Shown piece by piece: positions 17,088 to 56,875 of a DNA stretch of 64,000 nt. The notes beneath the pieces were generated by a model. The model did not search any database, had not been told where the DNA came from, and was given only the letters and a program-made list of their open reading frames with translations. The first letter of the stretch is position 1, and each line of letters opens with the position of its first letter. The stretch lies in assembly GCA_037130015.1 (NCBI GenBank), contig JBAXTU010000001.1, positions 5,153-69,152 of the forward strand, given 5' to 3'. Source of the DNA: a bacterium. Its GTDB lineage: Bacteria > Patescibacteriota > Patescibacteriia > 2-01-FULL-39-33. The position numbers were made by a program, and so were the translations under genes.

Positions 17088-17102
17088 TAAATAGAAATTA
17101 AA

Positions 17103-18191: not shown

Positions 18192-18196
18192 TATTT

Positions 18197-19666
18197 ATGC
18201 CAGAACAAAGTTTGCAAAAATTTAATCAATTGCCGGCGGAAATACGGAATAAACTATCTTCTCCGTCTATGTTGGCTGTGGTCAAGCAATTGGAAGTGCA
18301 ATATGGCGTCAAATTAAATTTGGCTTTTTTGAAGTTGGCAGTTGGCGATTTGCGTCCCGGAGAATTCAATGATTATTTGCGTGAAAAATTTAATTTGAAT
18401 AAAGATGTATCTGATATAATACGAGAACGACTTTCTAGGTTGTTGGTTGGAGTTGGTTTGACGCCGGTAGTAGCTGGAGTCAGTGGGGAGACTTCAAAAA
18501 ATCGTAGCGGTGAAGCTGGTTTTTCTTTTTCCATAGAAGATGACGCCGATGTCAGCCGTTTTAAGGATTTGGAATCAACAGAAATTAAAATTAAAAATTA
18601 TGAAGCATTGGCTGAAAATGTTATTGCCGAATTTGGTTATAAAAATAAAGATGAATCTTTACGTACTAGATTAAAAAATTTGATCATGTCCAGGCTCAAA
18701 GATGTGCGTGATGAATTTGAACTCATAGAACATTTGAAAAAAAATAAAGAAGTGGGTGGCATGGAATTGGGCGAAGAAGAAATAGATAAATTATTAAAAT
18801 TAATTCGCCAAAGTCCTGACAAAAAAATTTCTGATCAAGTGATTTTACCAACGACTGAAACCAAAGTTGAAACAAAAATAGAATTTCCGGTCAAGAAAGT
18901 TGAACCGATTAAGACGCCAGCTATTACTTTGCAGGCAAAAAAACAAACAGAAACCCAACAGTATCAGTCGCCTAAAAATTTATCAGCAAAACCAGTTGAA
19001 ATAAAATCAACTCAGGAAAATACTCCCAGCATAGAAATGGAAGATGGTTTGCCAGTGCTCAAAATGCCGGAAGAATTGATGATTCCTCCACATGAATTGG
19101 ATTTGAAAAAAAGCCAGTCTCTAAGTGAAGATAAACCGATTGAAAAAAAACCTGATTATCAAAAAAAACCAGAGCCGACACTGCACGCCAAGCAATTGCC
19201 AGTGATTAATAATAACGCCAAACAACCACCGGTTATGATGGCGCAACCGGTGCCATATTTGGCAAAAAAATCAATGCCACCGAAATTATCAAAAATTAGT
19301 AGTAGTCGTCCGTCGCTTGATGATGTGAAATTTACTCCCAAGCTACAAGGCCCAATTGAAGAACTGAACAATATGACGCTAATTGATTGGCGACGATTGG
19401 GAGAAAAAACTGAAAGCCGAATAGCCAAGATAAAAGAAAAATTAAATTTATTGGAAAAAGATTCTTATGGCCGACGTTTGCAGGGAATAGAAGCTTGGAA
19501 TAAAAATGAAATTAATAAATTTTATCGTTTGCTTGGCCAGGAAAGTTTGGTGAGCGGTCAAGAAGTGGAAAGTATTATTAAGGAGCGTTTAGAAAAAGGT
19601 TTGCCCACGCTTACTCTAGAAGAATTTCATTCGGTAATGGAGCTTAATCGTGATTTAAGATATTAG
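18197..19666 (+). CDS. hypothetical protein with Pro/Lys-rich central region
   Basis: N-terminus LQKFNQLPAEIRNKLSS is paralogous to 17103-18191. Low-complexity PK-rich middle. Confidence 0.5.
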   Translation: MPEQSLQKFNQLPAEIRNKLSSPSMLAVVKQLEVQYGVKLNLAFLKLAVGDLRPGEFNDYLREKFNLNKDVSDIIRERLSRLLVGVGLTPVVAGVSGETSKNRSGEAGFSFSIEDDADVSRFKDLESTEIKIKNYEALAENVIAEFGYKNKDESLRTRLKNLIMSRLKDVRDEFELIEHLKKNKEVGGMELGEEEIDKLLKLIRQSPDKKISDQVILPTTETKVETKIEFPVKKVEPIKTPAITLQAKKQTETQQYQSPKNLSAKPVEIKSTQENTPSIEMEDGLPVLKMPEELMIPPHELDLKKSQSLSEDKPIEKKPDYQKKPEPTLHAKQLPVINNNAKQPPVMMAQPVPYLAKKSMPPKLSKISSSRPSLDDVKFTPKLQGPIEELNNMTLIDWRRLGEKTESRIAKIKEKLNLLEKDSYGRRLQGIEAWNKNEINKFYRLLGQESLVSGQEVESIIKERLEKGLPTLTLEEFHSVMELNRDLRY

Positions 19667-19689
19667 TTTATAAATATTAAATAGAAAAA

Positions 19690-20121
19690 ATGTATCAAGT
19701 TGTAGTGCCACAATTTTTGGATGTTGAAGATAAGGTTTTTGGGCCTATTACTATCAGGCAGTTTATTGAAATGCTGATGGGCGCTTTGTTGATTTTTATT
19801 TTTAATAAAATTTTTGATTTTTCTTTGTTTGTTTTGTCTGCTTTTGTCGTGGGAATAATTACCGGCGTGTTGGCTTTTGTAAAAATTAACGGTCAGCCTT
19901 TTCATGAATTTTTATTAAATTTTTTGGGCACTATAAAAAATCCCAAGTTGAAAGTTTGGAAAAAAATGTTTACTAAAGAAGAAATAAAAAATGCCTTGCG
20001 TCCTGCTGATTTTAAGGCAGCTATGCCTAATTATGTGATGCGTCAGCCTGTCACTTCTTCAAAATTATCAGAATTGTCTTTGATAGTTGATACGGGAGGA
20101 GTTTATCATGGAGAAAGCTAG
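19690..20121 (+). CDS. PrgI/VirB3-like small two-TM T4SS membrane protein
   Basis: 143 aa with N-terminal FGPITIRQFIEMLMGALLIFIF followed by a second helix, a PrgI/VirB3-like arrangement. Sits immediately upstream of VirB4, which is the conserved VirB3-VirB4 synteny. Confidence 0.4.
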   Translation: MYQVVVPQFLDVEDKVFGPITIRQFIEMLMGALLIFIFNKIFDFSLFVLSAFVVGIITGVLAFVKINGQPFHEFLLNFLGTIKNPKLKVWKKMFTKEEIKNALRPADFKAAMPNYVMRQPVTSSKLSELSLIVDTGGVYHGES

Positions 20122-20156
20122 GCTTAATTATTTAATTTTTAAAATTATTAAAAAAT

Positions 20157-20828
20157 ATGGCTGATAGAAAAGCGACAAAAAAAACTCCATCTGTACAAAT
20201 GTATTTGAATATTGCTGAAATCAGGGATAATGCTATAATTTTAAAAGAGGGCTCGCTCAGAGCGGTGCTTTTGGTGTCTAGTATTAATTTTGCTCTCAAA
20301 GCCGAAGACGAACAAAATGCCATTATTTCAGGTTATATAAGTTTTTTGAATTCTCTTGATACTCCGTTGCAAATTTTGGTTCAATCTCGTGTTTTGGATT
20401 TGGATACTTATTTGGATAGTATTAAATCGGCTGAAGAAAAACAAACCAATGAACTATTAAAATTACAAACAGCAGAATATCGGCGTTATATAAGTGATTT
20501 AGTGTCGTTGGGAGATATTATGACTAAACGTTTTTATGTGGTGGTGCCTTATAATATTCTTTCCAATAAAAAAAGAAGCTTTACTAAGCGTATTGGTGAT
20601 ATTATTTCTCCAACTAGTGTTATTAATCTAAGTCAAAAACAATTTGCCAAAGAACACAAAGAACTTTTTATGATTGTTGATAAGGTTTTGTCGGGCTTGT
20701 CCAGCATGGGACTTCGCGCTTCTATTCTTGATACTCAGGCTTTGATTGAATTGTTTTATAATACTTATAACCCCACGGTTTCCCGCCGTGAAAAATTAAG
20801 CGATTTGTCAAAATTAAATTTAGAATAA
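20157..20828 (+). CDS. VirB4/TrbE/CagE N-terminal domain encoded as a separate ORF
   Basis: YLNIAEIRDNAIILKEGSLRAVLLVSSINFALKAEDEQNAIISGYISFLNSLDTPLQILVQSRV matches the VirB4 N-terminal (CagE_TrbE_VirB) domain pattern. Ends 7 nt before the ATPase ORF, which is in a different frame. Confidence 0.5.
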   Translation: MADRKATKKTPSVQMYLNIAEIRDNAIILKEGSLRAVLLVSSINFALKAEDEQNAIISGYISFLNSLDTPLQILVQSRVLDLDTYLDSIKSAEEKQTNELLKLQTAEYRRYISDLVSLGDIMTKRFYVVVPYNILSNKKRSFTKRIGDIISPTSVINLSQKQFAKEHKELFMIVDKVLSGLSSMGLRASILDTQALIELFYNTYNPTVSRREKLSDLSKLNLE

Positions 20829-20835
20829 TTATTTT

Positions 20836-22848
20836 ATGTTTGATCCTAATGAAATAAATAACACATCACCTGGCGCTCAGCCGTATATTCGTCCGGAGGA
20901 TCAGGTCAAAGTCACTTTGGAACAAAAGAAGCAATTAGAGCGCAATGAATCGTCTAATACCAAAGAAGTTTTAGAGGAAGAATTAATTTATCGCCGAGGT
21001 ATTGTTTCGGTGCGTGATTTGATTTCTCCGTCTTCTTTGGAAATCACTAGTTCTTATATTCATTTGGATGATAAATATGTGCGTACACTTTTTATAGTGG
21101 AATATCCGCGTTATATTTCGGTTGGTTGGTTTGCGCCAATTATTAATATGGATATTACAGCTGACATGTCTTTTTTCTTTTATCCCGTCAAGGCTCCGGT
21201 GATTTTGAAACAATTAAAAAAGAAAGTCGGCAATGTAGAAGCTGATCTTATTAGTCGTGCCGAAAAAGGAGCGCCTAGAGATCCTTTGCTTGAAACCGCA
21301 CTTCGTGATATGGAAAAATTGCGTGATGATTTGACCCAGGGTATTGAACATTTTTTTCAGACAGGACTTTATATTACTGTTTATGCCAAATCAATAGAGG
21401 ATTTGGATAGAAATTGTGATCGTGTAGAGAATTTTTTCGGTTCAACTTTGATATATTCCAAACGTGTTTTTTATCAAGCTGAACAAGGTTTCAATTCAAC
21501 TTTGCCTTTGGCTTTTGATGAGTTACAAATATTAATAAATGTGAATACTTCGCCGGCGGCCAGCTCGTTTCCGTTTGTTTCATCTGATTTGACATCTGAC
21601 CGTGGTATTTTGTATGGTATTAATCGCCATAATAATTCCTTGATTTTGTTTGATAGGTTTTCTATGCAAAACGCTAATATGGTGGTGTTTGCCACTTCCG
21701 GTGCTGGCAAATCTTATATTATTAAATTAGAAGTTTTGCGCAGTTTAATGTTAGGAGTAGATGTTATTATTATTGATCCTGAGCGTGAATATAAACATTT
21801 GTGCGATGCTGTGGGTGGTACTTATATTGATATTTCTCTTAATTCAGAAAGCAAGATTAATCCTTTTGATTTGCCTCGCGCCATGGGTGAAGATGCCAAG
21901 CCTGCCGATATTATCCGTAGTGCTGTTATTACTGTAAAAGGACTTATCCGTCTGATGATCGGCAATGTCACTTATGAAGAAGATTCTATTATTGATAGAG
22001 CGCTTTTGGAAACTTATGCCAAAAAAGATATTACGCCTGATGTTGATTTGACCAAAATTGAACCGCCAATTTTGTCTGATTTTCAAACTATTTTGGAAGG
22101 TATGGAAGGCGCGGAAAATATAGCACTTCGTCTAAAAAAATACACTGAAGGTACTTTTGCCGGGCTTATTAATAGTCCGACCAATGTGGAGATGGCTAAT
22201 CAGTTGGTTATTTTTAGTGTTCGTGATTTAGAAGATGAGCTTAAGCCGATTGCTATTTATACTATTGTTAATTACATTTGGAATGTGGTGCGCAGTGAAA
22301 TGAAAAAAAGAATTATGATTATTGATGAAGCTTGGTGGTTGATGCAAAGAGAAGATAGTGCTAAATTTATTTTTGCTCTTGTTAAAAGATGCAGAAAATA
22401 TTTTTTGGGAGTGACAACCATCACTCAAGATGTGAACGATTTTTTGACTTCACCTTATGGCCAGGCTATTGTTAATAATTCAGCTATGCAAGTGCTCTTA
22501 AAGCAAACGCCGGCAGCTGTGGGTTTGGTGCAAAAAACTTTCATGCTTACCGAAGGTGAAAAATATTTGTTATTAGAATCGTCTGTCGGAGAAGGCATCT
22601 TTTTTGCTGGTTCCAAGCATGCGGCCATTAAAGTAGTAGCGTCATATTCCGAAGACCAACTGATTACTTCTGATCCACGGCAACTTTTGGAAATTGAACA
22701 AGCCAAAAAAGAATTTGCTGAATCCATGAAAAATGAAGCAGAAGAACAGCCCGAAGAGGAGGCAGAAAAAAGTGAAGAAGAAAAGACTGATGAAACAAAA
22801 ACCGAAACACCAGCTGAGGCGGAAAAACAAACCGTCGCAAAAACATAA
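20836..22848 (+). CDS. virB4: VirB4-family T4SS ATPase (C-terminal ATPase portion)
   Basis: Walker A FATSGAGKSY and Walker B RIMIIDEAWWLM (the DEAW motif typical of VirB4/TraC). Length and order are right for the VirB4 C-terminal domain. Acidic C-terminal tail. Confidence 0.8.
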   Translation: MFDPNEINNTSPGAQPYIRPEDQVKVTLEQKKQLERNESSNTKEVLEEELIYRRGIVSVRDLISPSSLEITSSYIHLDDKYVRTLFIVEYPRYISVGWFAPIINMDITADMSFFFYPVKAPVILKQLKKKVGNVEADLISRAEKGAPRDPLLETALRDMEKLRDDLTQGIEHFFQTGLYITVYAKSIEDLDRNCDRVENFFGSTLIYSKRVFYQAEQGFNSTLPLAFDELQILINVNTSPAASSFPFVSSDLTSDRGILYGINRHNNSLILFDRFSMQNANMVVFATSGAGKSYIIKLEVLRSLMLGVDVIIIDPEREYKHLCDAVGGTYIDISLNSESKINPFDLPRAMGEDAKPADIIRSAVITVKGLIRLMIGNVTYEEDSIIDRALLETYAKKDITPDVDLTKIEPPILSDFQTILEGMEGAENIALRLKKYTEGTFAGLINSPTNVEMANQLVIFSVRDLEDELKPIAIYTIVNYIWNVVRSEMKKRIMIIDEAWWLMQREDSAKFIFALVKRCRKYFLGVTTITQDVNDFLTSPYGQAIVNNSAMQVLLKQTPAAVGLVQKTFMLTEGEKYLLLESSVGEGIFFAGSKHAAIKVVASYSEDQLITSDPRQLLEIEQAKKEFAESMKNEAEEQPEEEAEKSEEEKTDETKTETPAEAEKQTVAKT

Positions 22849-27526: not shown

Positions 27527-27562
27527 GAGCAGTGAACCAAGTGTCACTGCTCTTATTTTTTT
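27527..27562 (+). terminator. rho-independent terminator
   Basis: Stem GAGCAGTGA/TCACTGCTC followed by TTATTTTTTT. Confidence 0.65.
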
Positions 27563-27571
27563 GTTTAAGAC

Positions 27572-27599
27572 TTGACAAATAAAAAAAATAAGTTATAAT
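27572..27599 (+). promoter_or_regulatory. consensus sigma70 promoter: TTGACA, 16-nt spacer, TATAAT
   Basis: Perfect -35 (27572-27577) and -10 (27594-27599) hexamers with 16-nt spacing. Confidence 0.55.
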
Positions 27600-27890: not shown

Positions 27891-27929
27891 CCCGTCATTC
27901 ACTATTGTGAAATGACGGGTTATTTTTTT
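27891..27929. terminator. bidirectional rho-independent terminator between convergent genes
   Basis: Imperfect 12-bp stem CCCGTCATTCAC/GTGAAATGACGGG with a T-run on the + strand and an A-run on the other side. Sits between the 27676 ORF (+) and radA (-). Confidence 0.6.
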
Positions 27930-29256
27930 ACTTCAAAGCACTAATCGCTTCGCCGATATTTTTAACTGCTAAAATTTTTAGACCAGTGATATTTATTTTA
28001 TTGGTGGCCGGAATTACTGCTGAAACAAAACCCAAACGTTTGGCTTCTTTGAGTCTTCTTTCCAGTTGAGGCACACTACGAATTTCGCCTGACAAACCAA
28101 CCTCGCCAAGCAAGAGTGTTTTTTCTGGTAAAGTTTTTTCGGCGTAGGCTGAGGCTACAGCCAAACACACGGCCAAGTCAGCTGATGTTTCTTTTATTTT
28201 TAAACCGCCGGCGATATTTAAATAAATATCGTGATTGCCAGTATTTATTTTGCTATGCTTGGCCAGCACAGCGAGTAGCATTTGTAATCTGTTTAAATCA
28301 AAACCAGCCGAGCGTCTTTGCGGATAACCAAAAGAAGTTTTGCTAGCTAAGGCTTGCACTTCAATTAGAAAAGGCCGACTGCCTTCTAAAATCATGGTGG
28401 CGGAAATGCCAGGATTGGTCAGTGATAAATTTTGATCATAAAAAATTCCAGTCGGATCGGAAATTTCTTTTAGTCCACTGGCTGTCATTTCAAAAATTCC
28501 AATTTCACCAGTGGAGCCAAAACGGTTTTTGACGGTGCGTAATATTTTATAAAAATTTTGCGCGTCGTTTTCCAGATAAATTACCGTATCCACCAGATGT
28601 TCCAAAGTTTTTGGGCCGGCGACTAGGCCGTCTTTGGTGACATGGCCAATGGCGAGCACGGCAATATTTTTGGTTTTGGCTAGCGCCATAAGTTTGGCGG
28701 CTGAGGCCGTGATTTGCGAAACACTGCCGGCTGAGCCAGGGGAGTCTGCAGAATAAATTGTTTGAATGGAATCAATAATCAATAAGTCAGGTTTTTCCGC
28801 TTCGGCTGTGGCAATTATTTTTTCAACATTGGTTTCTGGTAAAAATAATAAGCGACTCAAATCACTGGTGAGTCGCACGGCGCGCATCTTGACTTGTTCG
28901 GCTGATTCTTCGCCTGAGGCGTATAAACATTTTTTTAGTTGGCCTGATAATTGCAAAGCCAAAGTTGATTTGCCAATGCCCGGATCACCACCAAGCAGTA
29001 AAAAAGAACCAACGACAATTCCACCACCAAGTACTCGGTCTAATTCATCAATATTAGTTGTCAATCTTTTTTCATTTTTTTTATCCAGGCGCGACAAATC
29101 AATGGCTTGAAGTGGACTGACAGCTGGAGATTTTTCTTTTTTTTCAATATTTTTTTCCTCAATAATGGTGCTCCATTTGCCACATTCAGTACAACGGCCT
29201 TGCCATTTGGGATATTGAGCTCCGCAGTTGGAGCAGGTGAAGATGGTGGTTATCAT
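27928..29256 (-). CDS. radA: DNA repair protein RadA/Sms
   Basis: N-terminal zinc finger CSNCGAQYPKWQGRCTECGKW. RecA-like Walker A GGDPGIGKSTL. KNRFG motif. Lon-like C-terminal domain. Confidence 0.9.
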   Translation of the reverse strand: MITTIFTCSNCGAQYPKWQGRCTECGKWSTIIEEKNIEKKEKSPAVSPLQAIDLSRLDKKNEKRLTTNIDELDRVLGGGIVVGSFLLLGGDPGIGKSTLALQLSGQLKKCLYASGEESAEQVKMRAVRLTSDLSRLLFLPETNVEKIIATAEAEKPDLLIIDSIQTIYSADSPGSAGSVSQITASAAKLMALAKTKNIAVLAIGHVTKDGLVAGPKTLEHLVDTVIYLENDAQNFYKILRTVKNRFGSTGEIGIFEMTASGLKEISDPTGIFYDQNLSLTNPGISATMILEGSRPFLIEVQALASKTSFGYPQRRSAGFDLNRLQMLLAVLAKHSKINTGNHDIYLNIAGGLKIKETSADLAVCLAVASAYAEKTLPEKTLLLGEVGLSGEIRSVPQLERRLKEAKRLGFVSAVIPATNKINITGLKILAVKNIGEAISALK

Positions 29257-29258: not shown

Positions 29259-30197
29259 CTAGTAGTAATTAGCTTGAGCGTGCCAGTGGCGCGTGTTTTC
29301 TTGGTAATAAATTGTATCTCCTATACGATAGCAAGGCATACTGCCACAAGGATAATTTCGTGACCCGCCATCATATACTCTGGTGCCATTAGTTTGTATA
29401 TTTTGATCTAATTTATCATAGCCTGCCTCGCCAGGTTTTCTTTGAATATCATAACAATTGTCATTACAGCCATAATGATGACCAGTTTCAGTACCGCCTG
29501 TCACATCAACCACACAATTAGTGCATTGCTGTTTTAGTCTAATGGCGCTATTTACGGCTGTTGATGCTAGGCCACCAACACAAGTGCAAGAGCCATTATT
29601 GCAATCTTGGCAATTACCTGATGAAGTAATATTGACACCAGCATTATTTAAAGCTGATCTATTGGCTGTTTCGTTAGTTGGTGTATTATTTGGAGATGGT
29701 TGACCAGTTCCGGTTCCAGTAGTTGATGGTTGAGTATCTTTATTACTATTATTGCTGATATTATTATTTAATGAACTTCCTCCACTACCTGGACTGGCAG
29801 CTGAGTCCACACCTGGTCCTAATTCAGGCATGGAAATAATTGTGAGCCTGGGATTAACAAGACTTAAAACAGTATAAGATAAAAAAAATAAAATTAGTCC
29901 GGCAATGGCCGAGATGATAATATCTTTGGCTTCGTTGATGGTGCCACTGTTGCCACGAGAGGTGAGCCATTTCATACCGCCCCACATCAGCATGACTGTC
30001 ACGAGCACGCCCACAACTCCGGCAAAAAATTGATACCACAAAGAAATATATTCATCAAAACTACTGACCGTAGTTTTTGAGCCTAGGGGTACATTGAGTT
30101 TGAATTCAGTAGAGGTGGCTGAAGCGATCAAAGGAAAAATAAACCAAACAGCAATAGCTATGGAAATAAATATTTTTAAATAGGTATTTTTTTTCAT
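29259..30197 (-). CDS. secreted/membrane protein with one VirB2/TrbC-like two-helix hairpin module and a Cys-rich C-terminal domain
   Basis: Signal peptide. Module WYQFFAGVVGVLVTVMLMWGGMKWLTSRGNSGTINEAKDIIISAIAGLILFFLSYTVLSLVNP is near-identical at DNA level to two modules in the next gene. Pro/Thr/Gly linker, then a C-terminal domain with more than 12 Cys. Confidence 0.5.
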   Translation of the reverse strand: MKKNTYLKIFISIAIAVWFIFPLIASATSTEFKLNVPLGSKTTVSSFDEYISLWYQFFAGVVGVLVTVMLMWGGMKWLTSRGNSGTINEAKDIIISAIAGLILFFLSYTVLSLVNPRLTIISMPELGPGVDSAASPGSGGSSLNNNISNNSNKDTQPSTTGTGTGQPSPNNTPTNETANRSALNNAGVNITSSGNCQDCNNGSCTCVGGLASTAVNSAIRLKQQCTNCVVDVTGGTETGHHYGCNDNCYDIQRKPGEAGYDKLDQNIQTNGTRVYDGGSRNYPCGSMPCYRIGDTIYYQENTRHWHAQANYY

Positions 30198-31455
30198 TTT
30201 AATTTATTTAGTAGCCGTTTTCTTTGTAATAATTATAATAACCGCCAGCAACACTCTCATAATTTTTGGTTTCAGCATAATCATTACCATGACAGCAATT
30301 ATATCTCATGCCATCTTGACAATCAACACTTGGAGCTACTGCATTTGGGCCACCATTGTAATAAGCAAATTTATCAGGCAAATTTAGGGGTTTGTTCGTG
30401 ATTGGGTTTTTAATATCGTTTGCTTGACTGAAATAGGCAGCACCAATTGCTATATTTTTCTCAGGATTAGCCATTAGCCAGTTACCGTCTATTGATGAAG
30501 CGTTTATACTTGAAAAATCTGCTCCATATTTTGGGTCTTTAACAACACCTTGGGCCGTGCCTGGTAAAAGTTGTGTTAATCCAAAAGCATTAGAGCCACT
30601 AGGAGGAACATTAGTATTGCCTCCACTTTCAATAGCTACTAAAGCGCGAAGCGCATTAGCATCAACATTATATTTATCAGAATAAGTGTTTATCCATCCA
30701 TTTATTTCAGGAGACATAGCGGGTGGTTTTAGTGGAGGCATGTTAGATAAACTTGGGTCATAAGATACGACACCAGCAGTAGCATTACTGCAATCAGCAG
30801 TGGACCTATCATTGAGTTTGCCACCGCCAGTATTACCTCCTCCACTACCACCAGCGCCACTTCCTCCACTTGCCGAACTAACTCCCGATCCTGGACTAGC
30901 AGGTGAGGCCACGCCCGGTCCTAATTCAGGCATGGAAATTTTAACCAATTCCGGATTGACCATATATAAAATAGTATAAGACCCGAACATTATAATCAAT
31001 CCGACGATAGCAGAAAAAATTGTGTCCTTGGCTTCATTGATAGTGCCACTATTGCCACGAGAGGTGAGCCATTTCATACCGCCCCACATGATCATGACCG
31101 TGGCCAAAACACCAATAACACCAACTAAAAGTTGATACCAAAAACCGATATACTCAGGAAAGCTGGCGACTGTTTTGTTATTGCCTAGTGGTACATTGAG
31201 GCAAAATTCACCAGCTTTGGCTGTACAGGCTTGAACGCTAGTAGAGGCAGACTTGTCTGGCATGGTCATGGTAAGTAGTCGCGGATTTACATATTGTAAA
31301 ATAGTATAAGACAGCATGACGAGCACCAAACCAATAATGCCGGAGAAAATAGTTTCTTTGGCTTCATTGATTGTGCCACTGTTACCACGAGAGGTGAGCC
31401 ATTTCATACCGCCCCACATGATCATGACTGTGGCGATGATTCCCACTATGCCCAC
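29840..31455. repeat. three near-identical roughly 200-bp modules encoding the two-helix hairpin (about 29840-30040, 30925-31140, 31240-31455)
   Basis: Shared string gccacgagaggtgagccatttcataccgccccacat recurs at about 29950, 31050 and 31390, with flanking similarity. Confidence 0.8.
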
Positions 31456-32004
31456 TATAAAATTGTACCAAACATTTACATAATCAGCGAAAGTGCTGTT
31501 GGTGAAATCTTGAGCCACTCCGGCTGTGAATTTGCCGATAGTGACATTGGGAGTGAATTGTATTGGGGCGGCTGGAGTAGTTGGGGTTGGGGCGGCTGGA
31601 GTAGTTGGGGTAGTCATGCCATTTGTTCCAATTACACCGTTATTGAGCAGGTTAGATCCTGTATTATAATCTTTGCCATTAAGTTGTTTGGCAATATAAA
31701 CAAAGTCTTTTGATAAGTTTAAACTATCCAGATTGGAAACATTATGCCACGGGCCATATATAGTATCCCCAGTGTAGCTGTGATAATACCATTTGCCACT
31801 ATCGTAATCAAAAGCAAAAAGTTCCCGTGCGTTAGCCTCCTTGCTATCAACAGTTATTATCGGTGACAGTTTTAAAGCTAAAGCATTATTTATTGGTAAT
31901 AAAACAAAAAAAAGATTGCACGCCAAAAACAAACCCAAGGTAAAGGCGAAGATTTTTTTGCTTGTCTGCCGGTAGGCAGGGTTTTTCTTATGTTGCTTTT
32001 TCAT
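30208..32004 (-). CDS. VirB1-like lytic transglycosylase (SLT domain) fused to two VirB2/TrbC-like hairpin modules
   Basis: Two copies of ...IVGI.G..ATVMIMWGGMKWLTSRGNSGTINEAK.TIFS.I.GL......SYTIL..VNP. SLT motifs ALVAIESGG and AFGLTQLLPGTAQ, then AYYNGG near the C-terminus. Confidence 0.6.
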   Translation of the reverse strand: MKKQHKKNPAYRQTSKKIFAFTLGLFLACNLFFVLLPINNALALKLSPIITVDSKEANARELFAFDYDSGKWYYHSYTGDTIYGPWHNVSNLDSLNLSKDFVYIAKQLNGKDYNTGSNLLNNGVIGTNGMTTPTTPAAPTPTTPAAPIQFTPNVTIGKFTAGVAQDFTNSTFADYVNVWYNFIVGIVGIIATVMIMWGGMKWLTSRGNSGTINEAKETIFSGIIGLVLVMLSYTILQYVNPRLLTMTMPDKSASTSVQACTAKAGEFCLNVPLGNNKTVASFPEYIGFWYQLLVGVIGVLATVMIMWGGMKWLTSRGNSGTINEAKDTIFSAIVGLIIMFGSYTILYMVNPELVKISMPELGPGVASPASPGSGVSSASGGSGAGGSGGGNTGGGKLNDRSTADCSNATAGVVSYDPSLSNMPPLKPPAMSPEINGWINTYSDKYNVDANALRALVAIESGGNTNVPPSGSNAFGLTQLLPGTAQGVVKDPKYGADFSSINASSIDGNWLMANPEKNIAIGAAYFSQANDIKNPITNKPLNLPDKFAYYNGGPNAVAPSVDCQDGMRYNCCHGNDYAETKNYESVAGGYYNYYKENGY

Positions 32005-32198
32005 TATTTTTGTTGCACTGTGCTGATGGTGCCGGGAATTATTATTGTTGTGGGCTCAGTTGAAACAGGTGAAGCTATTTTTAGTGGTGCTTTATAAAAA
32101 ACAGAAATAGCGGCCGGTATACTTATTAATAAAAAAATAAATATTAAAATAAAAATTATGATTTTTAAATAATCTGTTGGTTTTTTGTCTTTGGTCAT
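32004..32198 (-). CDS. small single-TM protein (64 aa)
   Basis: Hydrophobic core IIIFILIFIFLLISIPAAISVF. Its end is overlap-coupled (ATGA) to the start of the SLT gene. Confidence 0.35.
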   Translation of the reverse strand: MTKDKKPTDYLKIIIFILIFIFLLISIPAAISVFYKAPLKIASPVSTEPTTIIIPGTISTVQQK

Positions 32199-32203: not shown

Positions 32204-33448
32204 TTATGGCAAGGTCACTTTATAAACACGATTGTCAGTGGTATTGGTATAAAAAATAGTTTTACCATCAGGTGAGACACTCATTTGGCCGATGGTGGTA
32301 TTGGGATTGGCTACCATATTTTCAGCGCCGGTTTTTAGATTAATTTGATAAATACTTTCTGGCAGGCCGTCTGCAATATTTGGTTGAAGTCCTGCGCCAT
32401 AGGGCAGATTTTGTGGCACGGAACAATAGACATGATCAGCGTCGCCAAAAGTGCATTTGTTGCCCCAAGTATTGATGCCGAGTGCTTGGCGATTATTGCC
32501 GATAGAATCAGTGCTGGCATCGGCCACCCAAAGAGTGGGTTGAAAATTATTGCTGGGATCATAGACGCTGTACAAAACTTTACTGCCATCAGGTGACCAT
32601 TGGCCACGGAAGTCACGACCTTCAACAATCATGAGTTTGAAATTTTCATGATTTTGTCCGACAAAATAAACATTTGATCGGCCTGCATCACGGCCTTCAG
32701 AAAAGGTGGCAATCACTTGATTATTGGGTGACCAAGCTGATTGGAATTTGTCTTCTACTCCGCCAATGTCCTCTATGCTTTTGGCTTGAGTGCCGTCATA
32801 ATTGGCAATGGCTAAAAAACGATTTTCTTTGTCCAAGGCAATACTTTTAAAAACAATTTGGTCGTCTCTGAGAGAAAAAGAAAAGTCAGTCCAATGGCTG
32901 GGCAAGGTGATTTGTTTGTCAGTGGTGAAGTCATACATAATTGTAGAGCCATCAGGATAAGTTAGGACGGCACGGTTTTTGGTGTTGCCCCAAGTGACGC
33001 TTTGTACATTATGAAAAATTTTGTCACTAAAGGCTGTTAATTTTCCGTCAGTGCCCAGAATATTAAATTTACCAGTGTCAGGATTATAATAAATAACTTC
33101 ACCTTTACTGTTGGTGGTGGTAAAAAATGAGGTTTCTTTGGTAATGGCTTGAGATTCTCCGGGTGCAGTTGATGTGACTATGGTGATTGGTGGAGTGGTG
33201 GTTGGAGTAGTTGGAATGTTTTCGGCAGGTATGAGCTGGCCGTTGACATTAACAAAAATTCGGCCATTAACATTGATATTGCCGGTCGGTGGCAAACCAT
33301 TAATGTTGGCGTTGTTGACTACTGGCTGATTAATCATGGGAGCAAACAAAGTGCGCCAGAAAAAATAATAAATCATCAGTCCCATTAAAATGGCCGAGAT
33401 AATAATCATAGCAATGATGCCGATTTTTTTCCAATCAAGTTTATTCAT
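32204..33448 (-). CDS. TolB-like PD40 beta-propeller protein, membrane-anchored
   Basis: N-terminal TM. Repeated PD40-type motifs WSPDGSKVLYSV, VSPDGKTIFYT, WSPNNQVIATF. Confidence 0.55.
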   Translation of the reverse strand: MNKLDWKKIGIIAMIIISAILMGLMIYYFFWRTLFAPMINQPVVNNANINGLPPTGNINVNGRIFVNVNGQLIPAENIPTTPTTTPPITIVTSTAPGESQAITKETSFFTTTNSKGEVIYYNPDTGKFNILGTDGKLTAFSDKIFHNVQSVTWGNTKNRAVLTYPDGSTIMYDFTTDKQITLPSHWTDFSFSLRDDQIVFKSIALDKENRFLAIANYDGTQAKSIEDIGGVEDKFQSAWSPNNQVIATFSEGRDAGRSNVYFVGQNHENFKLMIVEGRDFRGQWSPDGSKVLYSVYDPSNNFQPTLWVADASTDSIGNNRQALGINTWGNKCTFGDADHVYCSVPQNLPYGAGLQPNIADGLPESIYQINLKTGAENMVANPNTTIGQMSVSPDGKTIFYTNTTDNRVYKVTLP

Positions 33449-33478: not shown

Positions 33479-34729
33479 TTATTGCCCGGTAGCTTTTTTT
33501 ATAACTTCCGTTGCTACTCCTGCCTTAACTCCTTCTCCGGAAATAATTCCTTTGGTTCCTCCTTTGACTACATCCCAATAAGTCCAATTACCATTAACAA
33601 ATTGATAACCTCCATAAATGATGGCCGCGAAAATACTAGCCACAATCACATCCAAAAGTGCCAACAAAATAATTTCAATCCATTTGGCCAGTTCTTTGGG
33701 CATCCATTTGCCTATCAAATAATCATCGCCGAAATCACACACCCAGTTGGGAAAAACATTAGCCACCACCAAGTGACCATTAAGATAGAGTAGTGAAAGA
33801 AAAGTCCAATCCAGCCAAACTGAGCCCCAAAAAGTGGTGAGTGAAACCGCGCTGGCTTGTTTGACACCAGCACTGGTTAATTTTTTGGCTGGGTCTTCTT
33901 TGTCTTCTTTTGATTTTTCAGATTCGCTATTTTCTTTTGATTTTTTATTTCTAGCTTCATTAATTTTTGAATTTGGATCGTTGTTGGCTGTGTCTTCCTG
34001 GTCATTTTTTGCCGGGTTTTTCTTTTTGTCTTCATTTTCTTCATTAGTAGGAATAGGTTTAGCTTCAGGAGTTTTGCCTCCTTCGTCTGCTTCTTTACCA
34101 CCGCCTTTTAAGTCTTGCTGGGGATCGCCTTTTTTTTCTTCGTTATTATTTTCTGATTTGTCTTTTGGCGCCAAACCTTCTTCTTTCATCAATTCTTGAG
34201 CTGCCGGGCTGGCATTATCAAATTGTCTTTGTTTTTGTTCATCGTCTAATGGAGCTTCTCGGCCAGTAATATTGGCCGCATCATCAACCATTTTTTTGTT
34301 GGGACCACTGACGCCACCGCCTAGTTTTGAAGTGTCTATATTTCCTTGTCCAGATTGGGAATTTTTTTCCTGTTCCAGTCTTTTGGCATTTCTAAGTCTG
34401 TCTAATTCATGTTCTTGATTGTCTGGTTGATAAAGAGATTGTTGCTGGTCGCCATAAGCTGACAGGGGAGTATTGGGAGTGTAGTTTCTTGGAGATTGCC
34501 GGCTTTGAGCAGATTGATTAGTATTATCTGACGCTTCTTGTTCGTCATTTTCTTCATCGCCTTCCGATTCTTCATCTTCTTCTTCATCTTCGTTGTCTTC
34601 ATCATCATCTTTATTGTTTTGGCCGGGAAATTTCAGGATATTATCAGGTTTTTTACGGCCAGAATTAAAATTTTCGTCAGCGGACGGATTTTGTAATTGA
34701 TGGGCTAGATTGTCAGATGAAGAGGCCAA
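33479..34729 (-). CDS. acidic intrinsically disordered protein with C-terminal two-TM domain
   Basis: Roughly 290 aa of D/E/K/N-rich low complexity (DDDEDNEDEEEDEESEGDEENDEQE), then hydrophobic helices (WLDWTFLSLLYL..., IEIILLALLDVIVASIFAAIIYG). Confidence 0.5.
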   Translation of the reverse strand: MASSSDNLAHQLQNPSADENFNSGRKKPDNILKFPGQNNKDDDEDNEDEEEDEESEGDEENDEQEASDNTNQSAQSRQSPRNYTPNTPLSAYGDQQQSLYQPDNQEHELDRLRNAKRLEQEKNSQSGQGNIDTSKLGGGVSGPNKKMVDDAANITGREAPLDDEQKQRQFDNASPAAQELMKEEGLAPKDKSENNNEEKKGDPQQDLKGGGKEADEGGKTPEAKPIPTNEENEDKKKNPAKNDQEDTANNDPNSKINEARNKKSKENSESEKSKEDKEDPAKKLTSAGVKQASAVSLTTFWGSVWLDWTFLSLLYLNGHLVVANVFPNWVCDFGDDYLIGKWMPKELAKWIEIILLALLDVIVASIFAAIIYGGYQFVNGNWTYWDVVKGGTKGIISGEGVKAGVATEVIKKATGQ

Positions 34730-34758: not shown

Positions 34759-37218
34759 TTATTTTTCTGCCTTTATTATACCATTTTTTGCTGTGACAAG
34801 TATAGTGTCACCTGGGGAGATCTCATCACGCAATATTTTTTCTGATAATAGTGTTTCAATCAGCTCTTGAATTGTTTTTTTAATACCGCGCGCGCCTTGT
34901 TCTCGGTCGCGACTATTTTGATTTATCAGTTTAATGGCCGAATTATTAAAGTTAAGAGTAATATTTTTTTTGAGTAATCGCTGGGAAATTTCCATCAGTT
35001 CTAATTTGACGATTTTTTCCATTGACGCATCATCAAGATTTTGAAAATAAATTATTTTATCCAAACGGTTTAGAAATTCAATTTTGAAATGATTTTTGGC
35101 TTGTGAGTATATTTTTTCTTTAAAATCAGTGGAGTCAAAATTGGCAATTTCGCCAAAACCAATGTCGCCTTTGCCCCCAAAAAGCTCTGAACCAAGATTT
35201 GAGGTGAGTATTATAATCGTATTTCTAAAATTTATTTTGGTGCCACTGGCATCGGTGAGGTAGCCATCGTCCAAAACTTGCAAGAGCAAATCAAAAACAT
35301 GGGAATCGGCTTTTTCAATTTCGTCATATAAAACCAATGAATATGGCCGGCGTTTCACTTTTTCTGTGAGATGCCCGCTTTCTTTGTAGCCAACATAGCC
35401 GGCTGGAGCGCCTATAAGTTTGGAAATATTGAATCTTTCGCTATATTCTGAGGCATCAACCCTGATGAGCGCTTGTTCGTCGCCAAATAAGGCTTTGGCC
35501 AGCGTTTTGGCAGTGTGTGTTTTGCCAACGCCTGACGGGCCTACCAAAAGAAAAGAGGCGAGTGGTTTGTTTTCCGGGGTAAGTCCGGCTTTGGCTCGTC
35601 TGATAAATTCGGCGATGCTATTTACCGCTTGATCTTGGCCGATAATTTTTTCGCCTAAATGTTTGTTTATATTTAAGATTTTCTTTTTTTCTGACAAAAG
35701 CAAATCATGAAGAGGCATGCCCGTGACCCGAGAAATAACTTTGGCAATATCTGTGGCTGTTATTTGGCCAGTGGTTTTTTCTTTTTTATTATCAATTTTA
35801 TTTTTTAATTGTTCCAGTCTGGCAACAATTTTTTGTAGCTGTTCTTTTTGAATAATAGCACTGGCAAAGTCTTCTTGTTCTATGGCTGTTTCTTTGGCAG
35901 ATTTTACAACTGCTAATTGTTTTTGCAAATTTTTGAGTTCTTTTTCGGTTGTGGATAATTTTTTGGCCACTTTTATGCCAGCCATGGCTTCGTCTATCAG
36001 ATCAATGGCTTTGTCCGGCAAGAATTTTTCCGGCAAATATCTGTGGCTTAGTTCCACGGCCGTGTAAATGGCTTCATCAGAAATGGCCACGCCATGAAAA
36101 TTTTCAAAATTTTCTTTCAGTCCATGCAGGATTTTTTTGGTCGCCTCAATGCTTGGTTCGTCAATTTTGATAGTTTGAAAACGGCGTTCCAGGGCTGGAT
36201 CATTTTCAATTGATTTGTGATAGTCGGCAAAAGTGGTGGCACCGATGCAACGAATTTCACCTCGCGCCAAAGCTGGTTTCAGGATATTGGCCGCATCCAT
36301 AGAACCACTGGCCGAGCCAGCACCCACCAAATTGTGGATTTCATCAATAAATAAAATTATTTCTGGCCGTCTTTTGGCTTCTTCTATGACTTGTTTGAGT
36401 CGTTGTTCAAATTCACCGCGATAAATCGTGCCAGCCACGGCCGAGGTGAGATCAAGCGTATAAATTTTTTTGTCCAACAAAATTTCCGGCACTTGGCCCA
36501 GACTGATTTTTTTGGCCAATCCTTCCACAATAGCGGTTTTGCCAACGCCAGGTTCGCCCAGTATGAGGGGATTATTTTTGAATCTGCGGGATAAAATTTG
36601 AATAATGCGTTCAATTTCAGCTTCACGGCCAATGACCGGATCAATGTTTTCTTGGAATTTTTTATTGGTCAGATTGCGTCCTAAAACATCCAAAATACTA
36701 GTTTGGTTTTGTTTTTTATTTTTTTTGCGATCACTGACACGAAAGGCCGCGGTCACTTCCGGCAGTTTGGAAGCGCTTTTTAGTAGTAGAGTTGTTTGCT
36801 CAACAATATCAGTTTCATTTATTTTTAAAAGTTTAAAAAGACTTTTAATATTTTGATTTTCAATTTGAATAATAGAGGCCAGTAAATGTTCTGTGCCTAT
36901 ATATTGATGGCCATTGGTATAGGCGATTTGTACGGCTTTTTGGATTAAAGTTTTGGCGGTCGCCGAAAAAGCTGGATAAATATCGTCGCTGTTGGCGGTT
37001 TCTGTTTGGCTAATTTTGGCAATTTGATTTTTTACTTCTTCAACTTTTATTTCCATGGCCGTGAATAATTCCGCGGCCACACTGCCACGCTGACTGATTA
37101 GACCATACAAAATATGCAAGGGTTCAATTTGCGGTTGTTTTAATTCCAACGCCAAATCAGCTCCTTTTTTTAGGGAGTGTTTGAAATTATTAGAAAATTT
37201 ATTCAGGGTTTCTTTCAT
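34759..37218 (-). CDS. Clp/Hsp100 AAA+ chaperone, ClpC-like ATP-binding subunit
   Basis: Clp_N repeats. AAA1 Walker A GEPGVGKT and Walker B DEIHNL. AAA2 GPSGVGKT. Short middle domain. 819 aa. Confidence 0.85.
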   Translation of the reverse strand: MKETLNKFSNNFKHSLKKGADLALELKQPQIEPLHILYGLISQRGSVAAELFTAMEIKVEEVKNQIAKISQTETANSDDIYPAFSATAKTLIQKAVQIAYTNGHQYIGTEHLLASIIQIENQNIKSLFKLLKINETDIVEQTTLLLKSASKLPEVTAAFRVSDRKKNKKQNQTSILDVLGRNLTNKKFQENIDPVIGREAEIERIIQILSRRFKNNPLILGEPGVGKTAIVEGLAKKISLGQVPEILLDKKIYTLDLTSAVAGTIYRGEFEQRLKQVIEEAKRRPEIILFIDEIHNLVGAGSASGSMDAANILKPALARGEIRCIGATTFADYHKSIENDPALERRFQTIKIDEPSIEATKKILHGLKENFENFHGVAISDEAIYTAVELSHRYLPEKFLPDKAIDLIDEAMAGIKVAKKLSTTEKELKNLQKQLAVVKSAKETAIEQEDFASAIIQKEQLQKIVARLEQLKNKIDNKKEKTTGQITATDIAKVISRVTGMPLHDLLLSEKKKILNINKHLGEKIIGQDQAVNSIAEFIRRAKAGLTPENKPLASFLLVGPSGVGKTHTAKTLAKALFGDEQALIRVDASEYSERFNISKLIGAPAGYVGYKESGHLTEKVKRRPYSLVLYDEIEKADSHVFDLLLQVLDDGYLTDASGTKINFRNTIIILTSNLGSELFGGKGDIGFGEIANFDSTDFKEKIYSQAKNHFKIEFLNRLDKIIYFQNLDDASMEKIVKLELMEISQRLLKKNITLNFNNSAIKLINQNSRDREQGARGIKKTIQELIETLLSEKILRDEISPGDTILVTAKNGIIKAEK

Positions 37219-37222: not shown

Positions 37223-38107
37223 TTACGCCATTTCCCTTAATTTTTTAATTCTGTCATCAATGGGCGGGTGAGTGGAAAAGGCATTGCTCATAAAGCCGGC
37301 TTTTTTGAAAGGATTGGCAATATACAAATGAGCTGTGGCGTTATTGGCATGAGACATTTGAGTGCTATCGTTTTTTATTTTTTCCAAGGCATTGGCTAAT
37401 CCGGCTGGGTAGCGGGTGAGAAGCGCGCCAGAAGCGTCGGCTAGATATTCTCGTTTTCTGGAAATAGCCAATTTGATGAGTTCGGCGATAATTGGAGATA
37501 AAATAATAAGTATAATGCCGACAATGGCCAAAATTGCACCTAAATTGCCTTTGTTGTCATTATCACTTCTGCTACCGCCAAAAAATCTTGAACGCCAAAA
37601 GAAATCAGCGATAAGTGTGGTGACTCCCACCAGAATAATGACAATCATCATAAGTCTGATGTCATAATTTTTGACATGTGATAATTCATGGGCAATGACG
37701 CCTTCTAATTCCTCGTTTTCTAAACGTGCAATAGCGCCGGTGGTGATGGCGATTGAGGCATGTTTTGGATCACGACCGGTGGCAAAAGCATTAATGGCTT
37801 GATCATCAATTAAATAAATTTTGGGCATTTGCAATCCTGCTGTGATGCAAAGATTTTCTACCAAATGATAAACTTCTTGGTTGTCTGATTCTTTAATTTG
37901 TTTGGCGCCGGCCGTGGCTAGGGCCACCTTATCACCGGCAAAATAGCCAAACAAGCTCATAAAAATAGAAATAATAATGGCAGAAACAAAAATGCCAGCG
38001 TCATTAAATGAATAACTCAAAAACCAACCCAACCCAGAAATAAGCAAGGTAAAAATAATTATCAAAAGCCAGGTTTTTCTTTTGTTGGAATCTATTTGAT
38101 TATACAT
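37223..38107 (-). CDS. htpX: M48 zinc metalloprotease HtpX
   Basis: HELSHV zinc-binding motif, NAFATG, four TM helices, about 290 aa. Confidence 0.85.
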   Translation of the reverse strand: MYNQIDSNKRKTWLLIIIFTLLISGLGWFLSYSFNDAGIFVSAIIISIFMSLFGYFAGDKVALATAGAKQIKESDNQEVYHLVENLCITAGLQMPKIYLIDDQAINAFATGRDPKHASIAITTGAIARLENEELEGVIAHELSHVKNYDIRLMMIVIILVGVTTLIADFFWRSRFFGGSRSDNDNKGNLGAILAIVGIILIILSPIIAELIKLAISRKREYLADASGALLTRYPAGLANALEKIKNDSTQMSHANNATAHLYIANPFKKAGFMSNAFSTHPPIDDRIKKLREMA

Positions 38108-38110: not shown

Positions 38111-38668
38111 TTAAAACTTAACTTCTATATTTTTCTTTTCAGCTTCGTCAGCTTGAAAAAAGTCATATTTTTTAAATTTTAAAGAGGATGCAATGAGATT
38201 GGTAGGGAAGACCTCCATTTGAATATTGAAATCCCTGGCATTACCATTATAAAAGCGACGGGAAGCTTGGATTTTGTTTTCTGTGTCTGATAGCTCGTCT
38301 TGCAATTTCATGAAATTTTGGTTGGCTTTTAGATCCGGATAACTTTCAGACAAAGCAAAAATTGATTTAAGGGTTGAGGATAGCTCGTTTTCAGCTTTGG
38401 CCTTGGCTTCGGTGCCAGTGCTAGCCATGGCTGTATTTCTGGCATTAATTACTTTTTCCAAAGTTCCTTGTTCGTGAGTGGCATAACCTTTGACTGTTTC
38501 CACTAAATTGGGGATAAGGTCATAGCGACGTTTTAATTGGACATCAATGTCAGACCAGGCTTCGTCTGTGCGATTTCTCAGCTTGATCAAGCCGTTATAG
38601 ACAGTAATGAGCCAAACGATGGCTATTACTGCAATGGCGACAATGATCCAAATGATTGTGTTGGTCAT
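38111..38668 (-). CDS. lemA: LemA-family membrane protein
   Basis: N-terminal TM, coiled region, C-terminal FYNGNARDFNIQMEVFPTNLIA typical of LemA. Confidence 0.75.
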   Translation of the reverse strand: MTNTIIWIIVAIAVIAIVWLITVYNGLIKLRNRTDEAWSDIDVQLKRRYDLIPNLVETVKGYATHEQGTLEKVINARNTAMASTGTEAKAKAENELSSTLKSIFALSESYPDLKANQNFMKLQDELSDTENKIQASRRFYNGNARDFNIQMEVFPTNLIASSLKFKKYDFFQADEAEKKNIEVKF

Positions 38669-52142: not shown

Positions 52143-52147
52143 TTTTT

Positions 52148-54118: not shown

Positions 54119-54121
54119 TTT

Positions 54122-54757
54122 TTGTTTATGTTAACTAATACAGACGAACAGAACCCAAAAGACAAGGCCAAGAGTGGACGCAAAAAAAAGCGCCTAGGTA
54201 TGATTATTAATAAATATTTTATTTTTATTGCTTTTGGTTTATTTCTTGTAGTTTTAATAGTCGGATATTTTTTGATGCTTAAAGACAATTATGCCAGCTT
54301 GAATCAGGCTCAAGATAAATTATCCCAAGCTAAAAGCGCGGTTATGTTTTTGTCAAAAGAACATCAAGCCATGATAGATAGCCAAGCGCAATCTCCACTG
54401 CTTTCGCCAACAGAAGATCGTTTATTCTCTTTAGCTTTACCAAAAAGTTTTGATTTGCCATCGGCTATTATCCAATTGACCGAGCTTTGTAAGGCCACTG
54501 GTTTTATGGTGACAAAAGTAGATGTGATTGAAAATAATTTAGTTGCAACTAGTGCTTCAGGGCAAAAAGTCGGCAAAGCCAATTTGTCACTCAGCGTGGT
54601 TGGTGGTGACTATGATGCTTGGAAAAGATTGCTTTTGGCCTTGGAACAAAGCGTGATGATTGTTGATGTTAGTAGTATTGATTTTAATTCGCAAAGCGCT
54701 AATTATAAATTAAATTTGACCGCTTACTATTATCCGGATACTGATACTAAACAATAA
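54122..54757 (+). CDS. pilO: PilO-like bitopic protein
   Basis: One N-terminal TM, a predicted coiled coil, then an alpha/beta domain. Position is right after pilN. Confidence 0.4.
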   Translation: MFMLTNTDEQNPKDKAKSGRKKKRLGMIINKYFIFIAFGLFLVVLIVGYFLMLKDNYASLNQAQDKLSQAKSAVMFLSKEHQAMIDSQAQSPLLSPTEDRLFSLALPKSFDLPSAIIQLTELCKATGFMVTKVDVIENNLVATSASGQKVGKANLSLSVVGGDYDAWKRLLLALEQSVMIVDVSSIDFNSQSANYKLNLTAYYYPDTDTKQ

Positions 54758-54761
54758 TTTT

Positions 54762-55058: not shown

Positions 55059-55078
55059 TAAAATAATTTTGGAGGCAA

Positions 55079-56857: not shown

Positions 56858-56875
56858 TATATAATAATTAATTAT

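Follow-up and report, generated by a model that had tools for sequence, protein, structure and literature searches.

VirB2-type pilin modules joined to putative cell-wall enzymes in the neighbourhood of a Patescibacteria type IV secretion gene cluster

The DNA analysed here, called the window throughout, is a stretch of 64,000 nucleotides (nt) of contig JBAXTU010000001.1 (assembly GCA_037130015.1, Patescibacteriota). On its minus strand two adjacent genes, 10 nt apart, encode proteins in which a membrane-hairpin module of the type IV secretion system (T4SS) pilin family precedes an enzyme-like domain. The larger open reading frame (ORF; 30208-32004) encodes a 598-residue (aa) protein built of a signal peptide, an N-terminal domain, two hairpins, a Gly/Ser linker and an SLT lytic transglycosylase domain, while the smaller (29259-30197) encodes a 312-aa protein with a signal peptide, one hairpin, a low-complexity linker and a Cys-rich LAS/M15-type domain. 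The pilin module, of about 100 aa, thus occurs once in the shorter protein and twice in the longer one, a placement that had been read from the DNA alone in an earlier annotation (the original prediction) and that the ORFs, a custom profile and Pfam bear out. The copy of the 312-aa protein is named A, and the first and second copies of the 598-aa protein are named B and C.

The custom module profile found hairpin A at aa 28-123 (29829-30116, minus strand; domain E-value 5.3e-42), hairpin B at aa 147-248 (31261-31566, minus; 3.2e-43) and hairpin C at aa 263-358 (30931-31218, minus; 4.7e-42), with transmembrane (TM) helices placed by hydropathy at aa 57-75 and 93-111 in A, 182-200 and 218-236 in B, and 292-310 and 328-346 in C. 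Hairpin B is of an ‘FTPNVxIG’ subtype, hairpin C of an ‘LNVPLG’ subtype. Pfam PF18895 (T4SS_pilin) matched both proteins above its gathering cut-off of 26.6 bits, the 312-aa protein at 5.6e-11 (42.8 bits) and the 598-aa protein, over two stretches, at 6e-23 (81.1 bits); the TrbC/VirB2 family (PF04956) also matched the 598-aa protein (7.1e-08, 33.0 bits, above the cut-off of 27.9), so that the VirB2/TrbC-like character proposed for the hairpin is supported by profile. In NCBIfam, the matches to Mbov_0395, a family of pilin-like conjugal transfer proteins, and to lytic transglycosylases were weak. A type IV pilus (T4P) pilin was rejected, no N-methylation match being listed for either protein. 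With 312 and 598 aa and their enzyme domains, the two proteins are unlike the small stand-alone members of PF18895 (124-145 aa), which have the common loop WGGFKWLTSGG and end at ‘..LPxI’. The proteins that carry a C-terminal cargo run on from ‘MPEL’, the equivalent of that end, and since stand-alone pilins stop where the cargo starts, the modules are whole pilins with cargo appended.

A direct-repeat search recovered the module as one 271-nt family of three copies (100/73/65% identity), with a 65-nt repeat (83%) directly after copies A and C. Protein identity over 116 aa is 72% between A and C, 48% between A and B and 47% between B and C. The loop MWGGMKWLTSRGNSGTINEAK is invariant among the copies and lies within TVM[IL]MWGGMKWLTSRGNSGTINEAK, the sole stretch common to all three, bar one Leu/Ile difference. 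At the DNA level, likeness is concentrated in a 75-nt core (25 aa) on the minus strand at 29925-29999 in A (TVMLMWGGMKWLTSRGNSGTINEAK), 31027-31101 in C and 31357-31431 in B: 68-70 of the 75 nt are identical in each pair (91-93%), against 52-63% identity in the flanking DNA. The best local alignments reach 79% over 162-178 nt for A-B and B-C and 73% over 334-349 nt for A-C. The original prediction had described near-identical modules, with near-identity at about 29950, 31050 and 31390; this holds for the cores, which coincide with those sites, but not for the flanks or for whole modules, which are three homologues only 47-72% identical in protein. Its interpretation of the domains is supported as correct, while its account of how alike the copies are was overstated.

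Both proteins begin with a Sec-type signal peptide. That of the 312-aa protein spans aa 1-27, with ASA followed by TS; that of the 598-aa protein (aa 1-43; 31876-32004, minus) has a basic N-region, the hydrophobic core IFAFTLGLFLACNLFFVLL and an ALA followed by LK, where the A-x-A rule would place the cleavage site. By hydropathy, the basic loop KWLTSRGNSGTINEAK of each module is flanked by two 19-mers that are strongly hydrophobic, so that each protein has one signal-peptide-like segment and two or four TM-like segments with a K/R-rich loop between. A single-sequence AlphaFold model of the 312-aa protein placed helices at 44-81 and 88-114, with a predicted local distance difference test score (pLDDT) of 52-75 in the hairpin; with an overall pLDDT of 45, the model could not be used to judge the C-terminal domain. 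In VirB2-type pilins the two termini lie outside the cell and the loop lies inside. The hydropathy is consistent with the same out-in-out topology, in which each hairpin would bring the chain back outside, and the C-terminal domain would therefore be extracytoplasmic with one hairpin or two. Ahead of its hairpins the 598-aa protein carries an extracytoplasmic N-terminal domain (aa 44-146; 31567-31875, minus) with a Pro/Thr-rich linker at its end, which has no Pfam or NCBIfam match and, among 152 relatives, is present only in P0001, an identical copy in ENA. The P0001 protein, encoded on a 4132-nt contig, ends in ...CLLYTSPSPRDS, presumably the in-frame translation of a Nextera transposase adapter, and its contig therefore appears to end in untrimmed adapter.

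The C-terminal part of the 598-aa protein (aa 426-598; 30211-30729, minus) is an SLT lytic transglycosylase domain by Pfam, motifs and PHROGs. Pfam SLT (PF01464) covers aa 438-557 (2.2e-11, 43.8 bits against a cut-off of 21.3), and the family-1 motifs AIESGG (aa 457-462, with the catalytic Glu-Ser), GLTQLL (aa 475-480) and AYYNGG (aa 547-552), on which the original prediction had based its assignment, agree with it. In PHROGs the protein matched only transglycosylase (1e-12), lytic tail protein, endolysin and tail fiber families, all in its C-terminal portion (aa 380 on), past both hairpins. Pfam found no CHAP domain in either protein.

The C-terminal domain of the 312-aa protein (aa 176-312, 137 aa; 29262-29672, minus) contains 10 cysteines, and its assignment draws on alignment, motif and structure prediction. 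Direct searches were negative: Pfam and NCBIfam gave no M15 match, PHROGs no match anywhere in the protein, phmmer against PDB sequences only noise, and a word-indexed homologue search with the domain no match. Iterative search within the retrieved set, however, ties it to about 28 pilin-headed proteins, among them P0008, which bears the classical SGYR..H..GRAVD...WHVD signature, and an alignment of 23 sequences has the consensus TSGxR..H..GxAxD...IDE...WHID. The 312-aa protein keeps one His of GHHYG (aa 239-243), an Asp about seven residues on, a Glu and HWH (aa 304-306 in full-length numbering), that is, H242, D249, E294, W304 and H305 when numbered on the query without the start Met. The zinc-ligand motif H-x(3-6)-D ... 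H-x-H is thus present, its His, Asp and HWH being invariant or nearly so in the 23 sequences. A profile search of PDB sequences returned only a weak match (E about 0.1), on the zinc motif of the Sonic hedgehog N-domain (Shh-N). AlphaFold with a 16-sequence alignment gave a model with pLDDT 87 and a predicted template-modelling score (pTM) of 0.84, for which Foldseek found no significant match, and Pfam matched Peptidase_M15_3 in two relatives. Taken together, these data identify the domain, with moderate confidence, as a putative LAS/M15-type zinc peptidoglycan peptidase, which may have the hedgehog/DD-peptidase fold. The original prediction, in which two of the three hairpins are fused to an SLT domain, stands as far as it goes but missed the fusion of the third copy to this wall-hydrolase-like domain.

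Proteins of this kind are not confined to the window. An exhaustive HMMER search returned 3,520 clusters (50% identity) at E <= 1e-10, and architectures were parsed in the best 150. About 42 of these combine one or more hairpins with SLT (38 hairpin-SLT, and one each of two, three and four hairpins plus SLT), 88 are single-hairpin proteins, most with long C-terminal tails, and others are hairpin-only proteins with up to 7 repeats. Among 110 proteins that the custom SLT profile did not match, Pfam recognised Phage_lysozyme in 8, YkuD in 3, SLT in 3, Peptidase_M15_3 in 2, and NlpC/P60 and Glucosaminidase in one each; by these assignments, every recognised cargo in the 110 would be a wall enzyme. 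TrbC was matched by 31 of the 110. The architecture is therefore unusual, as had been claimed, when set against textbook T4SSs, but common within Patescibacteria. Other pilin-headed ORFs in loci L026-L046 (Falkowbacteria, Parcubacteria, Uhrbacteria) are about 350-2100+ aa long, many of them 900-2100+ aa, and usually lie in tandem pairs, and there are several arrays of short pilins, as in L025 (6 genes, beside VirB6) and L036 (9 genes).

The gene pair also recurs in a conserved setting. A GTDB scan with an alignment gave 44 loci, mostly in Ca. Buchananbacteria, Kerfeldbacteria, Falkowbacteria and Uhrbacteria. Buchananbacteria-like loci have the recurring order ClpC, p416, TolB-like, (DsbA), one to three pilin-cargo genes, RadA, RecG. 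In an 802-kb ENA contig the order is LemA, M48, ClpC, 416, 414, DsbA, pilin+lysozyme, pilin+LAS-like, pilin+unknown, RadA, RecG and, further on, VirB4, TraC-like and PrgI. In L001/L002, too, T4SS core genes lie to the side of the pilin locus, as they do in Kerfeldbacteria-like loci, the latter with the order PrgI, VirB4, pilin, TolB-like, pilin(-SLT), RadA, so that pilin genes abut virB4. An SLT, LAS-like or lysozyme cargo is recognisable in at least 12 syntenic loci. RadA, RecG and ClpC of the window are 44-63% identical to those of syntenic loci (RadA 50-63%), while VirB4 is 70-78% identical to that of loci L001-L045; by this comparison the T4SS ATPase appears unusually well conserved, and the locus is best read as a long-standing part of the chromosome that has been passed on vertically in a distinct lineage. 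In the complete Ca. Kerfeldbacteria chromosome CP181398.1, PrgI-VirB4-pilin lies at the record end (L045, 1303698-1309938) and TolB-like-pilin-RadA-RecG at the record start (L021, 1-8610); the T4SS/pilin locus thus runs across the start of the record, in keeping with reports that T4SSs of Patescibacteria lie close to the origin. Several records, among them L006, L008, L011, L015 and L016, bear ‘uncultured Gammaproteobacteria bacterium’ titles despite a Patescibacteria-type locus and look mislabelled.

Across these genomes the pilin modules cluster by genome and not by cargo: best matches within a genome reach 72-100% protein identity, against about 57-67% for most best matches across genomes. 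Adjacent paralogs with unrelated C-termini are 87-100% identical in DNA over 188-367 nt spanning the signal peptide and/or the pilin module (366/367 identical nt in L006, 302/320 in L003, 287/309 in L008, 219/244 in L009, 225/256 in L010, 173/188 in L007 and 170/195 in L004), which is strong sequence evidence that gene conversion or unequal recombination has probably recurred in related genomes. In the window itself, the cores exceed their flanks in synonymous-codon identity (Fisher p = 0.006, 0.10 and 0.07). Codon preference was rejected as the source of the core identity because the shared codons are often rare ones (CTC 4%, ATC 10%, GTC 11% of their codon families). A universal constraint on the core at the nucleotide level is likewise unsupported: the three paralogs of L001 share only 55-66 of 75 nt, with many synonymous differences, which argues against it. 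Gene conversion, which the original prediction had invoked to explain the likeness of the copies, is thus strongly indicated in relatives, while within the window the case for it is modest. Hairpin C resembles A in its LNVPLG subtype and its trailing linker (ISMPELGPGV.S.ASPGSG), the closest cross-genome match of hairpin B is the third pilin gene of L001 (63%), and in L007 it is an FTPNV-subtype hairpin, like B, that directly precedes SLT. Given the subtype and linker of C and the arrangement in L007, the simplest history would be that a copy of A’s module and linker was inserted between B and SLT, giving rise to C.

On balance, we lean towards reading the two proteins as cargo-bearing VirB2-type pilins that together fill a VirB1-like role at the T4SS, one of them cutting glycan strands and the other peptides. 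This reading rests on domain identities, topology-consistent hydropathy, synteny, recurrence and homogenisation, from which we infer enzyme activity, docking at the T4SS and the wall that is targeted. The Sec signal peptide would export each protein, and each hairpin would cross the membrane out-in-out, as a helix, a short basic loop (KWLTSRGN) on the cytoplasmic side and a second helix, so that the enzyme would end up outside the cell, in the wall layer, whatever the number of hairpins. The 598-aa protein would supply the glycan-strand cutter (the SLT lytic transglycosylase) and the 312-aa protein the peptide cutter (the LAS/M15-type zinc peptidase), two activities that are usually joined in one VirB1-like protein of monoderm T4SSs and that in Saccharibacteria are divided between a lysozyme gene and an M15B gene beside virB4. 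The complete pilin module would dock both enzymes at the T4SS or pilus assembly site, where they would open the wall locally, and recombination between the neighbouring genes would keep their modules alike. Wall remodelling would in this way be coupled to pilin insertion. More broadly, complete VirB2-like pilins with wall-active enzymes are a widespread and apparently undescribed variant of the T4SS pilin family of Patescibacteria and not a one-off; a limited literature search found no description of pilin-hydrolase fusions, which is not proof of novelty.

The T4SS of Patescibacteria has VirB2-like pilins, unusual for a monoderm system, lacks a relaxase and a coupling protein, and is essential in the one species tested (PMC10633639, PMC12857230, PMC11665869). 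The pilins described for it (PMC10633639, PMC12102498) resemble the present modules in PF18895, the WGGxKWLTSxG loop, the Sec signal peptide and the two-helix hairpin, and their arrays in the linkage to a monoderm-type VirB4/PrgI/VirB6 cluster and in having several modules side by side. Those arrays, however, consist of 2-11 short genes, with an average identity of 25% and a maximum of 54% (PMC12102498), for stand-alone pilins of about 125-140 aa, whereas here enzyme domains of 150-250 aa are attached, two modules are fused in the 598-aa chain, and neighbouring modules are 47-72% identical, and up to 100% in relatives. In S. epibionticum, where the pilin subunits of the T4SS cluster are reportedly essential (Wang et al. 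2023, PMC10633639; PMC12857230), six short PF18895 pilins are encoded by separate genes (SEML1_0014-0019), and the published annotation places a lysozyme-like protein (SEML1_0006) and an M15B-like protein (SEML1_0007) beside VirB4; epibiotic growth reportedly depends on these peptidase and lysozyme homologues, whose genes come directly after virB4 (Quinonero-Coronel et al. 2025, PMC12102498). The likeness lies in a glycosidase and an M15-type peptidase encoded with a Patescibacteria T4SS; the difference is that no PF18895 is listed for SEML1_0006 (PF18013, PF01832) or SEML1_0007 (no Pfam), while the enzymes of the window are fused to pilins. PrgK (pCF10), TraG (pIP501) and TcpG, according to the summary in PMC12102498, offer a further parallel, a membrane-held muramidase or SLT domain and a peptidase that serve a monoderm T4SS, but combine SLT and CHAP in one chain behind a simple N-terminal TM anchor, instead of two proteins with a LAS/M15-type peptidase and a VirB2-type pilin as anchor. 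A 2025 survey found that most VirB2-bearing genomes are without VirB1 and suggested that the pilus needs none (PMC12102498); a fused hydrolase may have been overlooked in that count.

Several points weigh against a pilin-anchored pair. TrbC stays below threshold in the 312-aa protein (15.1 bits against 27.9), and the module profile matched no solved pilin among PDB sequences. The pilus of Patescibacteria is described in reviews as a possibility only (PMC12857230), and a cargo of 150-250 aa on every subunit would crowd a VirB2-type filament. Profile searches found no other PF18895 module and no stand-alone short pilin in the window. The pilin-cargo genes lie 6.4 kb from virB4, with RecG, tRNAs and a ComF-like gene between, and sit among the housekeeping genes LemA, M48 peptidase, ClpC and RadA; the proteins could therefore be general wall enzymes. 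The last two points also speak for the reading that the hairpin is a mere two-helix anchor, derived from a pilin, on ordinary housekeeping enzymes of wall growth and division without any tie to the T4SS. We judge this reading unlikely. It gains from how tightly the genes are packed on one strand with LemA, the M48 peptidase, ClpC and RadA, and from the YkuD L,D-transpeptidase among the cargos, which is synthetic and not lytic. Yet conservation in the proteins is highest in the cytoplasmic loop, which they have in common with the stand-alone pilins of T4SS arrays and for which a mere anchor would have no need; the pilin modules of neighbours are homogenised while their cargos diverge; and the genes abut virB4 in Kerfeldbacteria-like loci.

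A second reading, about which we are comparably doubtful, turns the enzymes outward: the modules would form or cap the T4SS pilus, and the hydrolases displayed on it would breach the host’s peptidoglycan for attachment or feeding. In solved VirB2-type pili both termini are reportedly at the outer surface, and a C-terminal cargo would therefore be exposed. The conserved head, variable tail and recombination also recall polymorphic effector systems. In LXG, Rhs and CdiA proteins a conserved trafficking domain at the N-terminus is combined with C-terminal domains that can be exchanged, and the present proteins resemble them in a conserved, recombining N-terminal module, diverse C-terminal enzymes and tandem genes, but differ in that the head is a membrane hairpin where those proteins have a soluble secretion signal, the cargos so far are wall enzymes only and no immunity genes are seen. 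The nearly exclusive repertoire of wall-degrading enzymes and the giant pilin-headed proteins of relatives (900-2100 aa) would suit a weapon, as would the report that S. epibionticum, when grown together with its host, needs the T4SS gene cluster to survive (PMC12857230). Against it stand the lack of an immunity-like gene beside the enzymes, the steric crowding to be expected if every subunit bore a cargo, and the tandem two-hairpin form, which a simple helical filament would not easily accommodate.

A wider and equally tentative proposal, which we would put forward only as a long shot, is that PF18895 ‘pilins’ of Patescibacteria are more than filament subunits and constitute a modular delivery platform, in which a conserved, recombining head would be recognised and extruded by VirB4/VirB6 and would bring interchangeable enzymes on the filament surface to the host. 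Its cargos (lytic transglycosylase, lysozyme, LAS and NlpC/P60 peptidases, L,D-transpeptidase and giant adhesin-like tails) would drill the host wall. If true, the platform would serve the epibiont for contact and feeding, and this would be why an epibiotic life depends on the T4SS.

Quite improbable, in our estimate, is that the proteins are polyprotein precursors, cut after NPxL..I.MPEL to free pilins and a soluble hydrolase, the 598-aa protein giving two pilins and an SLT enzyme. Stand-alone pilins do end at exactly that motif, and VirB2/TrbC pilins are processed at the C-terminus (RP4 TrbC/TraF); cargo-less proteins with up to 7 hairpins and the M48 peptidase in the same gene string would also suit such a scheme. 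But the search for a protease site or a dedicated peptidase like TraF identified neither, the sequence of the linkers varies and is of low complexity, and the idea is a speculation from module boundaries alone. A phage-like lysis cassette, with the two-helix module as a holin that releases the attached endolysin, is effectively refuted by PHROGs and context: the juxtaposition of a two-TM module and a muralytic domain is only superficially like a holin-endolysin pair and PHROGs does place the SLT part with phage transglycosylases and endolysins, but the module matched PF18895 and no holin-like family, nothing in PHROGs matched the hairpin regions, a Sec signal peptide already exports the enzyme, no phage genes lie nearby, and the chromosomal position is conserved across genomes only 50-63% identical in RadA.

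With the pilin-anchored pair as the preferred reading, the locus bears on the role of the Patescibacteria T4SS. It suggests that wall cutters have been built onto pilins in at least Buchananbacteria- and Kerfeldbacteria-like lineages, which would account for the apparently missing VirB1 in those lineages. The pair offers concrete proteins with which pilus display or attack on the host wall could be addressed, and it reveals a pattern of conserved head, variable cargo and recombination that the database label ‘pilin’, being generic, had masked.

The surrounding genes form a minus-strand string from LemA to RadA with gaps of 1-30 nt. LemA (38111-38668), the M48 peptidase (37223-38107) and the ClpC-like protein (34759-37218) are followed by a 416-aa protein (33479-34729) with a long acidic low-complexity N-part, a hydrophobic C-part and no family match; it is kept between ClpC and the TolB-like gene in syntenic loci and may be another partner of the system. 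Next comes a 414-aa TolB-like beta-propeller (32204-33448; PD40 and TolB propeller matches), conserved beside pilin genes in many related loci, and then a 64-aa ORF (32004-32198) whose N-terminus resembles the DsbA anchor of L001. As an intact DsbA (216-280 aa) occupies its position in 10 syntenic loci, the ORF is probably a membrane-anchor remnant of DsbA; no thioredoxin domain is left here, despite the 10 cysteines of the 312-aa protein next to it. Beyond the pilin-cargo pair lies RadA (27928-29256), and between the end of RadA and the convergent RecG side a hairpin at 27527-27552, with a perfect 9-bp stem and T-runs on both strands, resembles a bidirectional terminator. On the plus strand, 27572-27599 is a sigma-70-like site that agrees fully with the consensus (12/12).

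The T4SS core genes (14277-22848, plus strand) were assigned by Pfam as VirB6/TrbL-like (14277-17087), PrgI/VirB3-like (19690-20121), TraC-like (20157-20828) and the VirB4 ATPase (20836-22848); no relaxase or coupling protein was seen in the window. A type IV pilus cluster (51012-62685, plus) comprises PilM, PilB, PilT, PilC, a prepilin peptidase and an N-methyl pilin. Two giant proteins are encoded on the same strand, one of 3103 aa (4900-14211), directly upstream of the VirB6-like gene, and one of 1505 aa (44595-49112). The only match of either is the carbohydrate-binding domain CBM_4_9, and they are possible surface adhesins, one belonging to the T4SS locus and one to the T4P locus.

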